From sequence record MK327935.1: a DNA stretch of 64,000 nt; one strand, given 5' to 3'. Source of the DNA: Escherichia phage vB_EcoM_G2494. Position numbers and translations under genes: made by a program. The notes beneath the pieces were generated by a model. That model was not told the origin of the DNA. It did no database searches and was given only the letters and a program-made list of their open reading frames with translations. Below are positions 3,799 to 26,015 of this stretch, piece by piece (the first letter of the stretch is position 1; each line of letters opens with the position of its first letter).

Positions 3799-3852
3799 TG
3801 GCTGGCGGGTGTCGATGCCCCGCCGTCATAAATAGTTATATAATGATTTAAT

Positions 3853-4605
3853 ATGAGGTGTTTTATGATTAAAGTGCATGACGATTTCAAAGAACTTTAT
3901 AATGTATGCTCTGAACGTTTTTATTATGATGAAACGAGCGGAACAATTAGACGAAAATATGATTGTAAGAGCAATCATTATAAAGCGGGTGATGTAGTAG
4001 GATATAAAAGAAAACAAAAAAGAACAAATAGTGAAGATGATGTGTTCTATATGTTTACTAAGATTGATGGAGTTTCTTATTCAATTCAACAAATTGTCTT
4101 CTTGCTTACCGAAGGGTATATACCCAATTGCATCGATCATATTAACAGAGACACACTAGATAATCACCGTGAAAATCTTCGTGATGCATCGCGAAGCGGA
4201 AATGCTCGCAATAAATGCAAGGTATATAAAAATGGTTTCGCCTCTTCCGATTACATTGGTGTGTCTAAGCGGGGTTCTGGATTTAGGTGTCGTATTAGAA
4301 TAGACCATGTTATTGCATATGATGAAACGTTCGAAAATGAAACATCTGCCGCATATGCATATAACGTAGAATGTATAAAATTAGGTGTCAGTGAGTATAC
4401 CAACTTTAATAAATTTGAAGACGAAGAATCTGTTAGGAAACTTTACGAAAAAGAGAAAGAAAATAAAGAGTTTCAAGAATATTGGAAGGGAACACATAAA
4501 CAGGGTAAACGATGGGGCGCTAAAGTTAAGAGTGTGCGTTTGGGTACATTCGAAACAAGGGAAGAAGCTAGACTAGCTATAATTCGCTACAAAGAGGGGT
4601 TTTGA
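3853..4605 (+). CDS. free-standing HNH homing endonuclease with AP2-type DNA-binding domains
   Basis: HNH motif [18 protein letters not shown]; AP2-like segments [15 protein letters not shown] and [23 protein letters not shown]; inserted between gp5.1-like and gp5.4. Confidence 0.8.
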
Positions 4606-12472: not shown

Positions 12473-13327
12473 ATGGCACAAGTTCCAAAGAAAAGAATAG
12501 ACACAGGTACTGTCGGCAATCCATCGACTGGCGATATCTTATATGATGGCGGTAATAAAATTAACGATAACTTTGATTCAATATATGACGCATTTGCTGA
12601 TCAACGGTTTAAAGACGTAGACCACGGCGTAGGAAGAATGGTTATTCATGCAACCGGATACTATCAGAAACATCCACGTCAAAGCTACTCTGGGTCCGCT
12701 GTTGAGATTGGGAGTCTACACGATATCGATACAACTCAAGGCGCACTTATTGCTATTCTACCTAAAGCAAAGGTTGGTGAGGGTGTTGTATTCATAAATA
12801 GTAACGGTAGCTTTTCAACGACGACACCGCTCAATATTAGAACTCAAGCAGGTGATTCTATTAGCGGGTATTCCGGTGATGCTATAATAACACAACCATT
12901 TTCAAAAGTCACTGTTTGGTGTACTGCCGTTGAAGGTAGTCGCGTAACATGGCGATTGGGTATCGAAAGTATGTTTACCGATACAACAACGCCATTAGAT
13001 AAAACAGTTAACGTAACTGGAGTAGCAACAAACGTTGCTATTGCCGCAAAAACAGAATACGTTTCCATCAAATTATTAACTACCGCTAGCAATACATCCG
13101 GTTCAAAAATGCGTTCAAGTGAAACGCTACTGATGATTGATTCTAAAGCCGGAAAAGTTTATGCGACGGAATATGCAGTTTTGCAGAAGACAGAAGACGA
13201 ATTATACACGGTTCGTTATTTCATCGGTTCCGGCGATAAAGTATATGCAGAGTATAAGGCTACTGGCGAAAATATTCGTTTAGCAGTTAAAGCCGTAGAC
13301 ACTATTAAAATCGGGGTTGCTACATGA
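12473..13327 (+). CDS. 9: baseplate wedge / long tail fiber connector gp9
   Basis: 284 aa; strong similarity to T4 gp9 (IDTG..GN.STGDIL.DGGNKIN, HATGYYQKH, VFINSNGS, SIESMF, KIGVA). Confidence 0.9.
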   Translation: MAQVPKKRIDTGTVGNPSTGDILYDGGNKINDNFDSIYDAFADQRFKDVDHGVGRMVIHATGYYQKHPRQSYSGSAVEIGSLHDIDTTQGALIAILPKAKVGEGVVFINSNGSFSTTTPLNIRTQAGDSISGYSGDAIITQPFSKVTVWCTAVEGSRVTWRLGIESMFTDTTTPLDKTVNVTGVATNVAIAAKTEYVSIKLLTTASNTSGSKMRSSETLLMIDSKAGKVYATEYAVLQKTEDELYTVRYFIGSGDKVYAEYKATGENIRLAVKAVDTIKIGVAT

Positions 13328-15126
13328 AACAATTAATTAATATCGGTAACGTTGTTGATGACGGTACAGGTGATTATCTAAGAAAAGGCGGTCAAAAGAT
13401 TAATGACAACTTTTCTGAACTTTATACTAAGCTGGGGGATGGTGATATCCCTCATGCATCCGGCGCGTGGAAAACTCACACACAACCAGTATTAAAACCA
13501 AATTTTGGTGATGCATGGGCAATTAATACAACGAACAACGCTGTTTCTGTTGAATTGCCTAAAGGAAGCGCGAGTGATTACAATAAAACAATTAAACTTC
13601 GTGATGTTTGGCGCTCATGGGCTGCACATAACGTAACATTGAAGCCAGCACAAGGTGATACCATTAAGGGATCTCCAATCGACCGTGAGTTGTATAAAGA
13701 TTTTATGGATGTTGAACTGGTTTATTGTGCGCCTGGACGCTGGGAATATATCGAAAACAAGCGAGTTGACACGATCACCACGTCTGACCTAAGCACAGTA
13801 GCTAAGGAAGTTTATATTGCCACAGAAGGGCAAACAGATTTCCCTAATGTATTTGGTTCTAACACATATAACACTCGAAATGTTGAAGTATATTATCGAG
13901 GAAACCTTTTATATTATGGCAAGTCTTTTAGTAATGACTCTAACTACGGTTCAATTGGTGAGGATGGATCACTTGTTGAACTTGATGGCAAAAGCATAAA
14001 ACTTCGTTTTCCTTGTTCGGCTGGGGACACCGTTCAAATTATTACATATATGGACGGAATTGCATCATTCCGATCTAGTTATATCACACACACAATTAGA
14101 GTGTATGATACCGGAATGACAGCACTAGAAACTATTCCGGGTGAAGTGTGGGTAGGTGATTTATCGACGAAAAAAGAATTTACCAATGCTGATTTGGGAG
14201 TTAGTAAACGTGATATAATTAACCCAAATTCATTTGAGTTATTAATAAATGGCACTCAAATGATTAAAGCTGGTGATGCTGATCTTCCTTCGTTTGTTTG
14301 TGAAGGTGCTGACGGAGAAACCGAAGAGAGTTGCGCACTTGCTGGCGGTCAGTGGGTACAGTCTGGAGAAGATTATTCACTGGTATTTGATGAGAATAGC
14401 ATTGTAACAGGGATTAAATTAGCTAAAGCGTTGGACAATAGAGATACTATAACAATTCGTTGGTTTAATAACGATATCGGAACTCTATTAGAATGGGATG
14501 GTGTCGGCGGAATTAAAGAAAAAGCAGACAAGATTTATCTCAATAACGAAGACGAAGTTAATTTAACAAAACAAATTGAATATACAGACTTCCAGAATCC
14601 TAGTCAGAAAAACACTCGTCCGGCAGAAGAGTATTCAGGTCGAATTATGGATATATATTCACTGTTTGATATTTTTCATCCGGTCGGCACGATATACGAA
14701 AACGCACATAACCCAGCTAACCCAGCGACCTATATGGGGTTTGGTATCTGGGTTCGGTATGCGGAAGGAGAATTTCTTGCTGGTTGGTCTTCCGATGCCA
14801 GCGACCAGAATTTTGCATTAAACAATAACGATCTTGATATTCATGGACAACCTACACACACCGCTGGTGGTACTGGTGGTGAAGTTGCCTATCAAATCAA
14901 GAAAGATATGATTCCTGAATTACAATCCAGCGATCGTGTTTTGGTGAAAGACGATACAGGGTCAATTATCATTGGTGGCTGTCAAGTTGATCCTGATGCG
15001 GCAGGTCCAGCGTTTACGAAATATAGAGAGGATATCGTAAAAGTTAATTCTGGAAATGCTGATCCATCAATGATGGGCATTCTTCCTCCATATCGCACCG
15101 TTCATCGCTGGTTAAGGGTAGGTTAA
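13324..15126 (+). CDS. 10: baseplate wedge subunit and tail pin gp10
   Basis: 600 aa; N-terminal domain resembles gp9 N-terminus; size as T4 gp10. Confidence 0.8.
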   Translation: MKQLINIGNVVDDGTGDYLRKGGQKINDNFSELYTKLGDGDIPHASGAWKTHTQPVLKPNFGDAWAINTTNNAVSVELPKGSASDYNKTIKLRDVWRSWAAHNVTLKPAQGDTIKGSPIDRELYKDFMDVELVYCAPGRWEYIENKRVDTITTSDLSTVAKEVYIATEGQTDFPNVFGSNTYNTRNVEVYYRGNLLYYGKSFSNDSNYGSIGEDGSLVELDGKSIKLRFPCSAGDTVQIITYMDGIASFRSSYITHTIRVYDTGMTALETIPGEVWVGDLSTKKEFTNADLGVSKRDIINPNSFELLINGTQMIKAGDADLPSFVCEGADGETEESCALAGGQWVQSGEDYSLVFDENSIVTGIKLAKALDNRDTITIRWFNNDIGTLLEWDGVGGIKEKADKIYLNNEDEVNLTKQIEYTDFQNPSQKNTRPAEEYSGRIMDIYSLFDIFHPVGTIYENAHNPANPATYMGFGIWVRYAEGEFLAGWSSDASDQNFALNNNDLDIHGQPTHTAGGTGGEVAYQIKKDMIPELQSSDRVLVKDDTGSIIIGGCQVDPDAAGPAFTKYREDIVKVNSGNADPSMMGILPPYRTVHRWLRVG

Positions 15127-15127
15127 T

Positions 15128-15772
15128 ATGATTTCTAAAACACGTTCTAAAGCAAGCGTATTTTCTAGCGACGCAGCATTCATTTCATACGATCCGGGGT
15201 CTAAAGACCCCATTATTGGTGACATTCGCCCAATTGGTGGATTAAACGTAGACCAATCTCGCAAAGGTTCTTTTATTAACAACGTACAATCAGCCATTGA
15301 TGATTTGTATAGCATTTCTATGCTTAATGTCGGTGATGTATTGGTAACTACAAATTCAACTCCACCGGAAGCGGCGGGACAAATAGAAACTCTTTCTTTC
15401 ACTGGAACGGTAACAAATAAACACGATCCAGCCGCGAAAAAAGTTGTGATTGAAGTTTTGGGTTATCCATTTGTTGTTAATGTTGGAACATCGAATGTTG
15501 CATTATGCGAAATGGTCACAACAAAATTTACTGAATTGAAAGACAAAAGTATCTTATTCTCTAGAGTTGAGAGGAAAGGTACTGGCAACGATAAAATAGA
15601 GATTCAGTATATTGATTCAAATGCACACGAAGCAACGGTCGTAGAAAAATATGGTATTAGCGTTCGTGGGGAAATAAATTCCCCTGCTCGTTATGGTTAT
15701 GGTGCATGGTCCAGAATGGGAACGGAAGAAAAATTTGGTTCAACACTATTTTATTTTAAGCGTATTGCGTAA
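15128..15772 (+). CDS. 11: baseplate wedge subunit and tail pin gp11
   Basis: 214 aa, position and size. Confidence 0.7.
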   Translation: MISKTRSKASVFSSDAAFISYDPGSKDPIIGDIRPIGGLNVDQSRKGSFINNVQSAIDDLYSISMLNVGDVLVTTNSTPPEAAGQIETLSFTGTVTNKHDPAAKKVVIEVLGYPFVVNVGTSNVALCEMVTTKFTELKDKSILFSRVERKGTGNDKIEIQYIDSNAHEATVVEKYGISVRGEINSPARYGYGAWSRMGTEEKFGSTLFYFKRIA

Positions 15773-15782
15773 GGTGTAAATT

Positions 15783-17186
15783 ATGAATAACACTATTAAT
15801 CACGTAAAAGACGATGCACAGTATGTTAAGTTTGACCCTACCGGAAATTGGCCTAGCAATATAAAAAACGTACAAGCGGCATTAGCCGCTATTCAGGGGT
15901 TTGCTATTGCAGGTCTTCCAACGGCAACCGAAGAAACAGCGGGTATTGCTGAAATTGCTACTCAAAAAGAAGTAGATGATGGGTTGGATGGAACTAAAAT
16001 TGTTACCCCAAAAACATTGGCTGTTAAGCTGTCAAGACCGGACGCAACAAAACTTGTCAAAGGGATCACTCGCTATGCTAATAACGATGAAGCTATGGGC
16101 GATACTCCAAATATTGCAATTGGTCCTGATACATTAACCCATGTATTCGAGAAGAAGAAGGCAACGGAAACCGTACAGGGTACAATTAAAATTTGTTCTA
16201 TGGATGCGGCAAAAATAGGTAGCGATGACACTATGGCAGTAACGCCTAAAAAGATGCACGCTGCGATTGCTCAGATTGTTCCTGGATTGATCCCAGAGCA
16301 AAATACCGCTTCCGAATCCCGTGAGGGTCTAGTTAGGCTGGCAACAAGCCAACAAACGCTTGCTGGTACTATCAGAGAAGGATTTGCCGTTAGCCCATAT
16401 GCATTTTCCAACGCAAGAGCCAATGAAAATCAGGCGGGTACTGTTAAAATTGCGTCATCCCAACAAATGATTGACGGTAATGACAACACAGTAGTAGTAT
16501 CAGCACAAAAATTTGCGAACACTAAAGCAACCACTGGACAATTCGGTGTTGTTAAGCTAACAGATAATCCCAGTTCCGGTGAAGCAAATGCTGCGTTATC
16601 TGCAAATGCTCGTGTATTGCCTCTAAGCGGTGGTGTCGTTACTGGTGATGTGTATCGTCATAGTGGAGGTGACGGAAACCAGTTTACCACTAAAAACGAA
16701 ATGGATGCATGGTGTATGCCAATTGGTGCAATTATTCTAACTGCATTCAATAGCAATGATCACGGCGCATTTAAAATTTGTAACGGTCAATGGTTAAATA
16801 AACACCAATATCCAGTATTATTTTCACGAATCGGTTTCACTTACGGCGGAGATGGCGGAGACAACTTTGCTCTACCCGATATGCGAGGGCTTGTTGCTAG
16901 AGGATGCGACCACGGTCGAGGACTAGACCCAGGTCGTGGATTTGGTACTTATCAAGACGACACCATGCAACATATGACAGGTAACTTCCCTGTAGCTAAC
17001 CGTTGGCGCGGTTGGACTGGTGGTGCATTTGCCATCACAGGCGGTCAATGGAGCACGAACTATAAAAACGGTGGTGGTGATGATTGGGGTAGTATTGTTA
17101 ACTTTGACAGCGCAAGACAGGTTAGAACGTCTGGCGAAACTCGCGTTAAAAGCCTTGCATTAAACTACATGATAAGGGTACAATAA
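15783..17186 (+). CDS. 12: short tail fiber gp12
   Basis: 467 aa; blocks shared with T4 gp12 (YVKFDP, LATSQ..AGTIREGFAVSPYAF, NFALPDMRGL, SLALNYMIRV). Confidence 0.85.
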   Translation: MNNTINHVKDDAQYVKFDPTGNWPSNIKNVQAALAAIQGFAIAGLPTATEETAGIAEIATQKEVDDGLDGTKIVTPKTLAVKLSRPDATKLVKGITRYANNDEAMGDTPNIAIGPDTLTHVFEKKKATETVQGTIKICSMDAAKIGSDDTMAVTPKKMHAAIAQIVPGLIPEQNTASESREGLVRLATSQQTLAGTIREGFAVSPYAFSNARANENQAGTVKIASSQQMIDGNDNTVVVSAQKFANTKATTGQFGVVKLTDNPSSGEANAALSANARVLPLSGGVVTGDVYRHSGGDGNQFTTKNEMDAWCMPIGAIILTAFNSNDHGAFKICNGQWLNKHQYPVLFSRIGFTYGGDGGDNFALPDMRGLVARGCDHGRGLDPGRGFGTYQDDTMQHMTGNFPVANRWRGWTGGAFAITGGQWSTNYKNGGGDDWGSIVNFDSARQVRTSGETRVKSLALNYMIRVQ

Positions 17187-18955
17187 TGATCGAACAGTTA
17201 AACATTCGAAAGATCCCTAACGTCGATGGTGTCCCTGGAGAGGGACAGCATTCTATTAGCTGGATTAAAAATGGTGAATGTCTAAGCGCAGCAACCACAG
17301 AAACAGGACACGAGGGGACGCTTAACCGCGCCCCTTATGCGATTCAAGAAAATATTGTTCGTCTGGATGAAAATTCTAAGACAACGGTAACAAAAGTTAA
17401 CGAAGTTGTTACAGCAGTTAATGATATTAAAACTACTTTAGGCGCGGTTGCTGATGGTAGTATTATTGATATTGTCAATCAAACTATTGCAAAGGTTGAG
17501 TCTGTAGAAGAAAATTTAGGAGAAACTTCAAGGACATTACAAACCACAGTAGATGAACTGGCAGAAACAGGAAAGAAAATTGGTGTTCGTCCGGCAGCAG
17601 ATCCGAGTACACGAACAATATATGATGATATTTCTTTCATCAAACAAGAATTGGGTGCTTTCCCTAACTTCACTATCAACGGTTCTCCAGATCCGGGTAG
17701 TTCAGGTTCCGGTATCAAATATCGAGTTATCCAGAATACGGAAGCATTAAACAACCACGATCAGCGAATCCGCCAACTAGAAAACGACTGGCAAGATTCT
17801 GACGTTGGAGAGCTAACAAAACAAGTTAACAAAATACGAAGCGAGCTAGGCGATACATCACTAGCAACACAGGACAATGTTTATCTTCGTCTTCGCACAA
17901 ACACTAGCAATATCGCTAGTATATCAAACGAAGTTCAGGAAGTAAAGAAAGCGATTCTATTTGAATCAATTCCTGATATCGGGACTAAAGTAACTAAGCT
18001 ACAATCTGATTATACACAGCTTAATGATGAAGTCAACGGCTTTGACGCTGGTATCCGTCCTCGTTTAACTCTTCTGGAAAATACGATTGGCAATCCTCAA
18101 GCCGCTGGAAGTATTGATTATCGATTGACTAATCAAGAACGGGAATTTGTAGATCTTAAATCTATTGTCGGTGTTAGTGGTGCTGATGGCCTACGTGGTG
18201 AGGTTGCACGAATCTCTAACACAGTTGGTACTGATAGTGAGCGTCATACTATCGCAGGTCGTCTAAAAATTGTAGAAAATACACAGGGACGACTAGAAGC
18301 TAGCGTACAGGATATCGAGCAAATGATCGGAGATCGAGATTCCGGTCTAACCGCCGGGGTTATTAAGCTGTCAAGCGACATGTACGGCAATCCAGAAGGA
18401 AGCACGCAGCTTGAACAAGATGGGGTCGTGAAAACTGTTAAGGAATTGAGCACATCAAATGCAAGCAAGGTAACAGACGTTCCTGATGATGGTTTCCATT
18501 ATCTACGTAAGCACGGGGAATGGGTTCAGGTCGCATGGGCGGCTGGTACATTTAAAAACACCGCTCAGATTGATATTACTCTCGACGGACAAGATCAATA
18601 CAAAGGAATCCCGCTAAACGATATGACCGAAGAAGTTCCTGCGCGTGGAATGGTTAAGAGCGAATCTCTTGTTACGGTTAACGACAAAGGCTTATTCCGT
18701 TGTGATTTCCGTTGTTCTGTACATGCGGCAAATAACGCTACTTTCGTAGTCGGTATTGCTAAAAATGGTCTGATTGTACATGAGGTACGAAATGGTCATT
18801 ATGGAACTGATGATTTAATTAGCTATTCTACCAGTGCTTTCCTAAATATTGAAAAGGGCGACCGGATCGATATTCGCATTAAGGGCGTATCCGAAGAAGC
18901 ATTAGCGCAACAGCTACAAATTAAAGAGTTCCTCTTTGGAATTTCTCCGGTATAA
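17186..18955 (+). CDS. wac: fibritin (wac) with ~130-aa extension beyond the foldon-like segment
   Basis: N-terminus SISWIKNGE as T4 fibritin; coiled-coil heptads; foldon-like HYLRKHGEWVQV followed by extra C-terminal domain. Confidence 0.8.
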   Translation: MIEQLNIRKIPNVDGVPGEGQHSISWIKNGECLSAATTETGHEGTLNRAPYAIQENIVRLDENSKTTVTKVNEVVTAVNDIKTTLGAVADGSIIDIVNQTIAKVESVEENLGETSRTLQTTVDELAETGKKIGVRPAADPSTRTIYDDISFIKQELGAFPNFTINGSPDPGSSGSGIKYRVIQNTEALNNHDQRIRQLENDWQDSDVGELTKQVNKIRSELGDTSLATQDNVYLRLRTNTSNIASISNEVQEVKKAILFESIPDIGTKVTKLQSDYTQLNDEVNGFDAGIRPRLTLLENTIGNPQAAGSIDYRLTNQEREFVDLKSIVGVSGADGLRGEVARISNTVGTDSERHTIAGRLKIVENTQGRLEASVQDIEQMIGDRDSGLTAGVIKLSSDMYGNPEGSTQLEQDGVVKTVKELSTSNASKVTDVPDDGFHYLRKHGEWVQVAWAAGTFKNTAQIDITLDGQDQYKGIPLNDMTEEVPARGMVKSESLVTVNDKGLFRCDFRCSVHAANNATFVVGIAKNGLIVHEVRNGHYGTDDLISYSTSAFLNIEKGDRIDIRIKGVSEEALAQQLQIKEFLFGISPV

Positions 18956-19001: not shown

Positions 19002-19934
19002 ATGTCAGGATATGTAACCAATAACCCAAGAGAATTAAAAGACGCTATTCTGCGTCGTTTAGGCGCACCAGTAATTAACGTAGAAGTCACAGAAGACCAG
19101 ATTTACGATTGTATTCAGAGAGCACTAGAACTCTATGGGGAATATCATTTCGATGGTGTGAATAAAGGATATAAAGTATTTCGTGTTAGTGCAGAGCAAG
19201 CGCAACATGGGGTATTTGATTTAAGCGATTCTGGTGTATTCGCAGTAACTAAAATAATTCGAACAAACGTAGGTAGCGCGGCTACGATGGATGGCACTGC
19301 CGTTTATCCGTGGTTTACCGACTTTCTGTTGGGTTTAGCGGGTGTAAATGGCGGTTTAGGATCTGGCTGTAGTAAATTTTATGGTCCAAATGCAATGGGC
19401 GGTGATCTAGGATATTTCGAACAGCTTATGAGCTATCGAGCCACTATGCAAAATATGCTCAATCCGCTGCCAGACTATTGGTATAATAGCGCAAACGGAC
19501 AACTTAAGATTACAGGAAACTTCCGAGAAGGTGATCTCATTGTTGTTGAATTATATGTTAAAAGCTATATAGACGTTCCTGATATGATCGGCGCGGTTGC
19601 TGGTTATGCTCATGCAGGAGGATGTTCTACCGCTGGCGGGATTAGCGCCGTTTATGATAATCCAACTGCTGGTTTAAGCGGGATTGTTGCTGGAATGGGA
19701 CCGATCCGTGATAACAAGCAGGGCGCATATAATAACCGTTGGGTTAAAGACATGGCAACCGCTTTCACTAAGGAGGTTTGGGGGTCCATCATGGCTAAAC
19801 ATCAAGGTCTGCAATTACCCGGCGGTGTCACTGTTGATGGTATCCGAATCATTGAAGAAGCACGCGCCGACATTGAGAAATTGCGACAAGAACTAGAATT
19901 ATTAGATCCTCCGTTCGGCATCCTCATGATTTGA
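19002..19934 (+). CDS. 13: neck protein gp13
   Basis: 310 aa; highly similar to T4 gp13 ([62 protein letters not shown]). Confidence 0.9.
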
Positions 19935-20751: not shown

Positions 20752-21507
20752 ATGAAAAACTATTATCTATACGAAATAAAGAACAATATAAATGGTAAGA
20801 TATATGTTGGCATTCGTGGGTATGATGGTGACATAAGTCAAGATCCTTATATGGGTAGTGGATTGACTCTTAAGAGGTCTATTAAAAAGAACGGGATAGA
20901 AAACTTCACAAAAACAATTCTCAAAACGTTTGACTCATGGAAAGAGGCAAGGAAAGCAGAAAGAGAAATAGTTACAGAGGAATTTGTAAAAAGAGAAGAT
21001 ACCTATAATGTTTCGGTTGGTGGACAAGGTGGAAATACTCACGCTGGGATGAGCGAAGAACGAAGAAAACTTGCAAGCGAAAGACACGCAGAAGCAAACC
21101 GAAATAGAGTATGGAAGCAAGAATCTAGAGATAAGGTTAGCGCAAGATTCAAAGGTCATAAGCTATCACAGAAGCAGATAGACGCGCTAAAGAAGGCAAA
21201 CACAGGAAGAAAGTTCACAGAAGAACACAAGTTCAAAATAGGTAAAACGTGGCGAGGAAAGAAACGACCAGATATAGGAGAGAAGGTTGCGGCAAAATTA
21301 ACAGGGAGAAAACTACCCCCAGAACATGTGGCAGCAATAACGCAAAATACACCGAGAGGAAAACAACACTTTAGGGCAAAAAGATTCTTCATCGACGATA
21401 TGGAATTTTATATTTTGAGTGACGCAGCTAAAATGTTTGGTATAAGTTATAAAACGGTTAAAGCTAGACTTCTCTCAGATAAGTTTCCTACATGGAGATA
21501 TGAATAA
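20752..21507 (+). CDS. free-standing GIY-YIG homing endonuclease (Seg-like)
   Basis: GIY-YIG motif YLYEIKNNINGKIYVGI; NUMOD-like repeats; C-terminal HTH ILSDAAKMFGISYKTVKARL; inserted between gp14 and gp15. Confidence 0.8.
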   Translation: MKNYYLYEIKNNINGKIYVGIRGYDGDISQDPYMGSGLTLKRSIKKNGIENFTKTILKTFDSWKEARKAEREIVTEEFVKREDTYNVSVGGQGGNTHAGMSEERRKLASERHAEANRNRVWKQESRDKVSARFKGHKLSQKQIDALKKANTGRKFTEEHKFKIGKTWRGKKRPDIGEKVAAKLTGRKLPPEHVAAITQNTPRGKQHFRAKRFFIDDMEFYILSDAAKMFGISYKTVKARLLSDKFPTWRYE

Positions 21508-22396
21508 ATGTTTTCACATTTTTACAATTCGTCAATTAGACGGTATATTGTATTGCTGGGTAATTTATTCTCCGGCGTACAAATTAAAAGGGTGCGTAGC
21601 GACGGTGAGCGTTTTATTAAAGTTCCTATCACCTACGCAAAGAAAGAAAAATTCATGATGAGTCTGGACAAATATAACAATATCTCAAGTGAGGAAGACG
21701 TAGCAAAGGTAGAAACTATTTTACCGCGTATGTGTCTTTCTTTGATTGATATGACATACGCCCAGAACTTTAAAACAAATATTGCAAATAAGACAGTACC
21801 AAAATATACGGCTGATGGAATCAGGAGCGTAACACAATATAATCCTGTACCATATAAGTTTACTTTCGAGTTAGGGATTTATACGCGTACAATATAATCC
21901 TGTACCATATAAGTTTACTTTCGAGTTAGGGATTTATACGCGTAACGAAGATGATATGTTTCAGATAATTGAACAGATTCTTCCTTACTTCCAGCCTCAT
22001 TTTAACTGTAAGATTAAAGAACTACACGGTAATGATGTATGGATTGATCGAGATATTCAGGTCACTATTAGTTCTATTACTCCAGATGAACAGGTAGGCG
22101 AAGATAAGTTTTCTCGTCGTCGTCTTGAGTGGACCATTATGTTCGAATTTATCGGCTTTATATATCCTCCAGCTACCGACGTTAAGGGGGAAATTAGAAC
22201 GATTTATCTTGATTTTCATGCTAATTCTCGTGAATTAAATCCTAGCGGTAATTTTGAATCAGTGGATCACGAGGTCGTTAAACGTGACGTCGAGCAAGAA
22301 GATTGGGACGGAACAATCAAAGAATCATATTCTAGTGATATTCCAATACCAGTTGCACCAACTCCACCGGGTCCACGTATTGTAAGAGAATTTTAA
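21508..22396 (+). pseudogene. 15: gene 15 (tail sheath stabiliser/tail completion) split into two ORFs (21508..21897 and 21956..22396) by a frameshifting tandem duplication
   Basis: N-part ends ...ELGIYTRTI*, C-part starts MFQIIEQILPYFQPHF; removing one 55-bp repeat copy restores the continuous T4-like sequence ...GIYTRNEDDMFQIIEQ... Confidence 0.7.
21835..21944 (+). repeat. perfect 55-bp tandem direct duplication inside gene 15
   Basis: caatataatcctgtaccatataagtttactttcgagttagggatttatacgcgta present twice back to back (21835-21889 and 21890-21944). Confidence 0.85.

Positions 22397-22409: not shown

Positions 22410-26015
<3,606 letters not shown>

Follow-up and report, generated by a model that had tools for sequence, protein, structure and literature searches.

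The fibritin of Escherichia phage vB_EcoM_G2494 carries an RB49-type C-terminal extension predicted to fold as a C1q/TNF-like knob behind a retained foldon-like hairpin

Fibritin, the neck-whisker protein, does not end at its foldon-like segment in Escherichia phage vB_EcoM_G2494. The last 137 residues are predicted to form a C1q/TNF-like β-jelly roll of the ten-strand type that comes straight after a retained foldon hairpin, and the assignment to this group holds at the level of the fold only. The extension itself is the already known "RB49-type" fibritin end (RB49, Phi1 and JSE), and it is common throughout the genus.

We analyzed a stretch of 64,000 nucleotides from this phage (sequence record MK327935.1), hereafter called the window. 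Its wac gene (fibritin, neck whiskers/collar) is a 1770-nt ORF on the plus strand at 17186..18955, encoding 589 aa plus a stop codon. It is immediately preceded by g12 (short tail fibre; 15783..17186), with g10 (13324..15126) as a further upstream neighbour, and is followed after a gap of 46 nt by g13 (neck; 19002..19934). The ORF order g10-g11-g12-wac-g13-g14 is of the T4 type and is identical to that of the annotated JSE and RB49 loci. At the nucleotide level the gene is 99.9% identical to that of Escherichia phage FL20 and 98.7% identical to the annotated wac of JSE, where the homologue is named "wac, fibritin neck whisker"; likewise, phrog_1056 ("fibritin neck whisker") matches aa 1-581 with an E-value of 1e-179. 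All 57 matching records in the phage collection were RB49-like phages, and the taxonomy, which was read for JSE, RB49 and ECD7 only, is Krischvirus, Straboviridae. None of the ORFs in the window has the size that a long-tail-fibre gene should have.

The first two parts of the protein are those of a fibritin. The conserved N-terminal domain, the virion-attachment end (17186..17335, plus strand; approximately aa 1-50), aligns to the N-terminus of T4 fibritin (PDB 1ox3/2ibl, E ~1e-14), and in no comparison was its identity to the homologues below that of the coiled coil; a role in attachment to the neck has been described for the fibritin N-terminal domain (PMC3797505). A segmented α-helical coiled-coil shaft follows (17336..18463, plus strand; approximately aa 51-426), collinear with T4 fibritin 6-436. 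With phmmer, aa 7-431 matched T4 fibritin 6-436 (PDB 2bsg_A) at an E-value of 1.3e-50, and the Pfam family Fibritin_C was detected on aa 368-450, including the last coiled-coil segments (E 2.6e-24; 85.6 bits versus a cut-off of 21). The N-terminal domain and the segmented coiled coil are both homologous to those of T4 wac, placing the protein among the fibritins.

The shaft ends in a foldon-like β-hairpin (18464..18541, plus strand; aa 427-452, SKVTDVPDDGFHYLRKHGEWVQVAWA). Residues 425-449 (..VTDVPDDGFHYLRKHGEWVQV) align with residues 456-480 of the T4 foldon (of 487), and Pro, Asp-Gly, Tyr, Arg-Lys and Gly-Glu-Trp-Val are kept between the two; the hairpin motif, which has its Tyr, Arg and Gly-Glu-Trp where the coiled coil ends, marks the segment as a foldon. 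Foldon entries of the PDB (1rfo and 4ncv) were also matched in a profile search, and in 12 of the 14 homologue comparisons the identity of the foldon-like segment was at least that of the flanking coiled coil. The stretch HYLRKHGEWVQV occupies aa 438-449, after which 140 residues, A450-V589, still follow. Most of them belong to the domain that we call the knob, a predicted C1q/TNF-like (BclA-C-like) β-jelly roll (18542..18952, plus strand; aa 453-589), which is the extension that the first-pass annotation had pointed out.

That annotation, made from the letters of the DNA, had claimed an extra domain of about 130 aa after the foldon-like segment in a protein of 589 aa against 487 in T4. The 140 residues past aa 449 confirm the domain, and the two lengths are those of the wac ORF and of PDB 2bsg_A. 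The coordinates given for it, 18557..18955, run from N458 to V589 and include the stop codon, and both quoted strings, KGIPLNDMTEEVPARGMV and FRCDFRCSVHAANNATFVVGIAKNG, can be read unchanged in the wac translation. The statement that the foldon is the C-terminus in T4 also agrees with our alignment, which stops at T4 residue 480 of 487, essentially the end.

A comparison with the wac genes of related phages, which had been suggested as a check, placed the extension at the end of wac in 57 of 57 RB49-like genomes (tblastn with the last 140 aa; 74-100% amino acid identity at 100% coverage). The homologues are all 587-591 aa long, those of the 17 full-length protein clusters from genomes and metagenomes, with an overall identity down to 30%, being 587-589 aa, and the two distant full-length homologues that we checked are in the same g12-wac-g13 context. 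Between the window and RB49, pN is 0.14 and pS is 0.53 in the extension; the resulting dN/dS of 0.175 indicates that the extension is under purifying selection, somewhat more relaxed than in the coiled coil (0.09) or in the N-terminal domain, which has the lowest value (0.05). These data bear on whether the extension is an artefact, namely a frameshift-derived or read-through tail or additional coiled-coil or foldon sequence, which the first-pass annotation had itself named as the explanation that would overturn its claim. The sole basis for such a reading is the difference in length from T4. Against it stand a reading frame and a length that are kept across 57 phage genomes and in 17 protein clusters, the purifying selection on the tail, the 589-aa wac annotated in both RB49 and JSE, and a confident all-β model free of coiled coil (see below), and we reject an artefact as extremely improbable.

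Sequence searches found few relatives of the knob. With the 140-aa tail as a query, a word-indexed protein search returned only two 110-aa fragments, and an exhaustive HMMER search of 1.84 billion representatives returned only two true relatives, both of them fibritins (P0003, 76% identity; P0005, 30% identity). Two other hits of that search (P0004 and P0006; E 1e-8 to 1e-6) were internally repetitive and consisted of many short matched stretches, and were rejected as compositional or repeat matches. Sequence and profile searches of the PDB left the knob unmatched, the foldon part being the sole match, and the fold was therefore taken from prediction. An AlphaFold2 monomer model of aa 425-589, calculated with a 14-sequence alignment (pLDDT 88.8, pTM 0.82), has the foldon hairpin with strands at 438-442 and 445-449 and, directly after it, an all-β domain, a compact antiparallel β-jelly roll of ~130-140 aa as in the C1q/TNF-like proteins. 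Foldseek concurs, with BxpB/ExsFA (2e-7) and also 4-1BBL and C1QL among the matches; PRD1 P5, the TM4 gp23 RBD, the phage 1358 RBP and the Sf6 needle knob were found lower among the structural matches of the model. In BFVD the same fold recurs often as the end domain of phage collagen-like and fibre proteins.

At the level of sequence families the signal is fainter. Pfam BclA_C (PF18573) matched 11 of the 14 homologues (best E 3.9e-7) and C1q (PF00386) matched eight of them (best 0.0023), while BclA_C scored 16.4-16.7 bits on the window protein against a curated cut-off of 38, and neither C1q nor BclA_C recognized the window protein at the curated Pfam threshold. The bit score, which was reported for the window sequence alone, lies far below that threshold, and we therefore file the knob at the fold or superfamily level only. 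An auto-cleaving Peptidase_S74 chaperone domain was ruled out, as Pfam gave no match to such a domain and the predicted fold is C1q-like. An Aeh1-type downstream chaperone gene was also ruled out because the 46-nt gap between wac and g13 contains no ORF. Separately, a free-standing 159-aa uncharacterised protein of Klebsiella phage KPV15 (A0A1J0MHA5, in BFVD) aligns structurally with the model of foldon and knob (Foldseek E 4e-10, TM 0.76, 24% identity over 164 alignment columns), and may be a stand-alone version of the foldon-knob module in this T4-like Klebsiella phage.

The combination of foldon and knob extends beyond the RB49-like phages. When the tail of the more distant relative P0005 was used as a tblastn query, it matched the C-terminal ends of the fibritins in Serratia phages 92A1 (E 9e-7) and 4S (1e-3), with weaker matches to PS2 and to Erwinia phages Cronus (E 4) and IT22. 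The fibritins of 92A1 (L007 490..2265) and Cronus (L008 511..2283) contain a foldon-like motif (PDDQFYYVRQGDRWVQI and PNDGRVYARKSKAWVS, respectively) followed by an alignable tail of ~140 aa, and these tails show a weak alignment to the Krischvirus knob. P0022, the most distant relative from metagenomes, still has the tail, but its foldon tryptophan is lost. In L003 (4565..5991; the most distant metagenomic relative) a 402-aa protein without Pfam matches takes the position of g12, and a 72-aa ORF comes after it, directly upstream of wac; the locus may thus encode another type of short fibre together with a small accessory gene.

Judging from sequence similarity, foldon plus knob is spread over several straboviridae lineages, namely Krischvirus, the unclassified Serratia phage 92A1 and deep metagenomic T4-like lineages, and possibly also the Tevenvirinae via Erwinia phage Cronus (Roskildevirus), whose match is weaker. 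Because the combination occurs in several of these lineages, the bare foldon of T4 may be a truncated derivative. We offer tentatively, and with some doubt, the idea that foldon plus C1q-like knob is the older and widespread fibritin C-terminus and that the foldon-only end of T4 is its remnant; the wider distribution suggests that the foldon could be what is left of a once larger module.

In the window, wac is part of a larger divergent block. From ~13800 to 18955 (plus strand, ~5.2 kb), covering the C-terminal part of g10, g11, g12 and wac, the nucleotide identity to RB49 falls to 66-82%, while it is 97-100% in both flanks, and the right edge of the block is exactly the wac stop codon. Since a block of low identity is set between near-identical flanks, wac appears to travel within a g10-g12-wac allele cassette. 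From the sequences, the block looks like an old cassette of baseplate, short-tail-fibre and whisker genes that has been swapped as a unit. In wac, dS versus RB49 is saturated (~1.5-2) and dN/dS is low. The window has the JSE/FL20 allele of wac and not the RB49 allele, to which it is ~76% identical in nucleotides over the whole gene. The wac of ECD7 (L005) is a recombinant: it is RB49-like to approximately nt 18600 (aa ~470-478), and then window-like (93-100% nucleotide identity) through the knob and downstream, dS being 0.13 in the knob versus ~1.5-1.7 in the rest of wac. The breakpoint is near the start of the C-terminal domain.

Several other features of the window were recorded along the way. 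An ORF for a 250-aa HNH endonuclease (3853..4605) lies in a segment without an RB49 counterpart (3806..4594), with the region matching g5.1 on one side and that matching the PAAR gene on the other, and is probably a free-standing homing endonuclease insertion. A gene for a GIY-YIG/I-TevI-type homing endonuclease (20752..21507) is located between g14 and g15, and its JSE counterpart is annotated as a homing endonuclease; RB49 has no endonuclease gene at the g14-g15 site, and ECD7 has a different one (segC) after g13. In gene 15 (tail sheath stabiliser/completion; 21508..22396) we found a perfect 55-nt tandem duplication at 21834..21944 (2.0 copies, 100% match), which shifts the frame and leaves the ORFs 21508..21897 and 21956..22396. 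The gene is intact in JSE, where it is annotated with 834 nt, and the intervals among the matches listed from the phage collection were all 834 or 819 nt; because these intervals are 55 nt shorter than the query, none of the matches listed carries the duplication. Either it arose in the assembly as an artefact, or it is a mutation that disables an essential gene. Two overlapping ORFs make up g17, the gene for the large terminase (22904..26015), the first (583 aa) with positions 5-106 of the Terminase_6N profile fused to a TnsA-like/endonuclease I domain, and the second (459 aa) with positions 105-213 of Terminase_6N and Terminase_6C. This split arrangement is also found in a metagenomic relative (L001).

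What might the knob do on the whisker? Domains of the C1q/TNF fold usually assemble as homotrimers at the end of trimeric stalks, which they cap, and gC1q, collagen NC1 and BclA-CTD nucleate the trimerisation of collagen-like stalks from the C-terminus; in T4, the 27-residue foldon alone does the job of C-terminal trimerisation. The summary by Letarov and Krisch (PMC3797505) states that RB49 fibritin is trimeric, that its foldon-like motif is insufficient and additional sequences of the expanded C-terminal domain are needed to trimerise, and that only the fibritins of T4 and JS98 fold with the small foldon alone; in the same summary, these C-terminal domains are said to start trimerisation without a separate chaperone. 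Because of the behaviour of the fold family and of this summary on RB49 fibritin, we take the knob as a trimerisation and registration nucleus and as the distal tip. It is probable, in our judgement, that the knob is both a trimeric tip of the whisker and a C-terminal nucleus and that it presents a surface to the long tail fibre; the trimer geometry and the fibre contact are what we infer here.

Three copies of the knob would pack round the fibre axis, so that each neck whisker would end distally in a globular knob, as the fold family and the literature suggest. Their primary role would be to join the three chains and set their register, and the segmented coiled coil would then form toward the N-terminus. 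The knob would also take the place of the T4 foldon as the whisker surface facing a partner and, purely by analogy with T4, the partner would be the long tail fibre during its attachment and retraction. In T4, the C-terminal part of fibritin touches the long tail fibre near the knee, aids the attachment of the fibres and keeps them retracted (PMC3797505). According to Efimov et al., the C-terminus of RB49-like Wac is unrelated to that of T4, and the resting conformation of the fibres may differ.

Alternatively, the knob could be a structural cap only, which stabilises the end of the fibre without a specific binding partner, as C1q/TNF-like trimers (BclA, ExsFA) are very stable caps. However, the region NGHYGTDEL...LNIEKGD (aa 536-560) is a putative surface loop that stays nearly invariant in sequences down to 56% identity, and the knob is kept in several genera, both of which suggest more than a cap; the contact of the T4 fibritin C-terminal region with the long tail fibre (PMC3797505) also speaks against it. 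We consider a cap-only function very unlikely.

The first-pass annotation had raised another possibility, that the distal domain is a carbohydrate-binding or environment-sensing module, and this interpretation is partly supported. As an accessory adhesin or lectin, the knob would let the whisker tips bind reversibly to a host glycan (LPS core, O antigen or capsule), concentrating virions or sensing the surface. The fold is compatible with glycan binding, as in the phage 1358 RBP and the TNF-like lectins, and the stem plus head of A-1(L) together bind cells, although the A-1(L) head alone does not. The pattern of variation speaks against a host-specific adhesin. Across the 14 homologues we saw neither hypervariable exposed loops nor mosaic exchange independent of the shaft, as would be expected of a receptor-binding head: the variable positions of the knob are mainly at aa 458-490, its divergence follows that of the coiled coil, its dN/dS versus RB49 is low as given above, and in the single intragenic recombinant, that of ECD7, two alleles of one and the same module have been exchanged. 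The knob showed no sugar-binding motif, and physical linkage to g12 accounts for the k-mer signal of fibritin as well as for the cassette. In addition, published host-range genetics of the RB49-like phages point to gp38, to which both natural host-range differences and selected host-range mutants map. An adhesin is thus unlikely as the main function. A role in trimerisation, the function we favour, is nevertheless compatible with an extra ligand-binding role of the knob and does not exclude it.

The extension was reportedly described as an RB49-type fibritin by Letarov et al. in 2005. RB49 gpwac (AAP04366.2) is one of eight types of fibritin C-terminal module and has been studied biochemically, and its C-terminal domain has been called expanded and alien, with no fold given (Letarov and Krisch, PMC3797505). 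Because the RB49-type fibritin was already published (Letarov 2005, 2013), the observation made in the first-pass annotation is a rediscovery, and because the extension is both published and genus-wide the window holds no discovery on this point. In the searchable literature we found neither the C1q/TNF-like fold of the RB49-type domain, nor the retention of the foldon hairpin before it, nor the wider distribution. These additions (the assigned fold, the foldon kept in front of it, and the wider spread to Serratia, possibly Erwinia, and uncultured T4-like phages) appear new, and they are incremental and could be obtained by anyone with structure prediction. Their practical value is modest, but the fold gives a testable picture of a C1q-like trimeric whisker tip with one strongly conserved loop region and bears on how whiskers of the non-T4 type handle the long tail fibres; for protein engineers, the natural tandem of foldon and C1q-like domain is a possible stronger trimerisation tag.

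Compared with the RB49-type fibritin, the window protein shows nothing essentially different: it belongs to the same family, has the same C-terminal module, the same length of 589 aa and the same synteny, and over the last 140 aa it shares 75.7% identity with RB49 wac (100% coverage, E 4e-65), which places it within this module type, the window having the JSE/FL20 allele. With the T4 foldon (PDB 1rfo, 1aa0, 2bsg) it shares a homologous hairpin ending a homologous coiled coil and, presumably, the nucleation of the trimer at the C-terminus, whereas the foldon of T4 is essentially C-terminal and sufficient to trimerise and that of the window is internal, with a 137-aa domain after it. The C-terminal domain of BclA, ExsFA/BxpB (Bacillus exosporium) and gC1q/collagen VIII NC1 are only 9-18% identical in sequence to the window knob, and their stalk is a collagen triple helix whereas that of the window is an α-helical coiled coil. 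TNF/C1q-like heads of phage fibres are known from the CBD of the short tail fibre gp33 of cyanophage A-1(L) (8ke9), the tail fibre of cyanophage A4 (9k09), PRD1 P5, the tail-needle knob of Sf6/HS1, the RBP of phage 1358 and TM4 gp23. They share with the window knob, whose trimer is presumed, the form of a trimeric distal knob on a fibre, and in A-1(L) gp33 and the Sf6 needle the knob is likewise placed after a helical bundle. These heads, however, sit on host-facing tail fibres, needles and vertex spikes, whereas the knob of the window sits on the neck whiskers.
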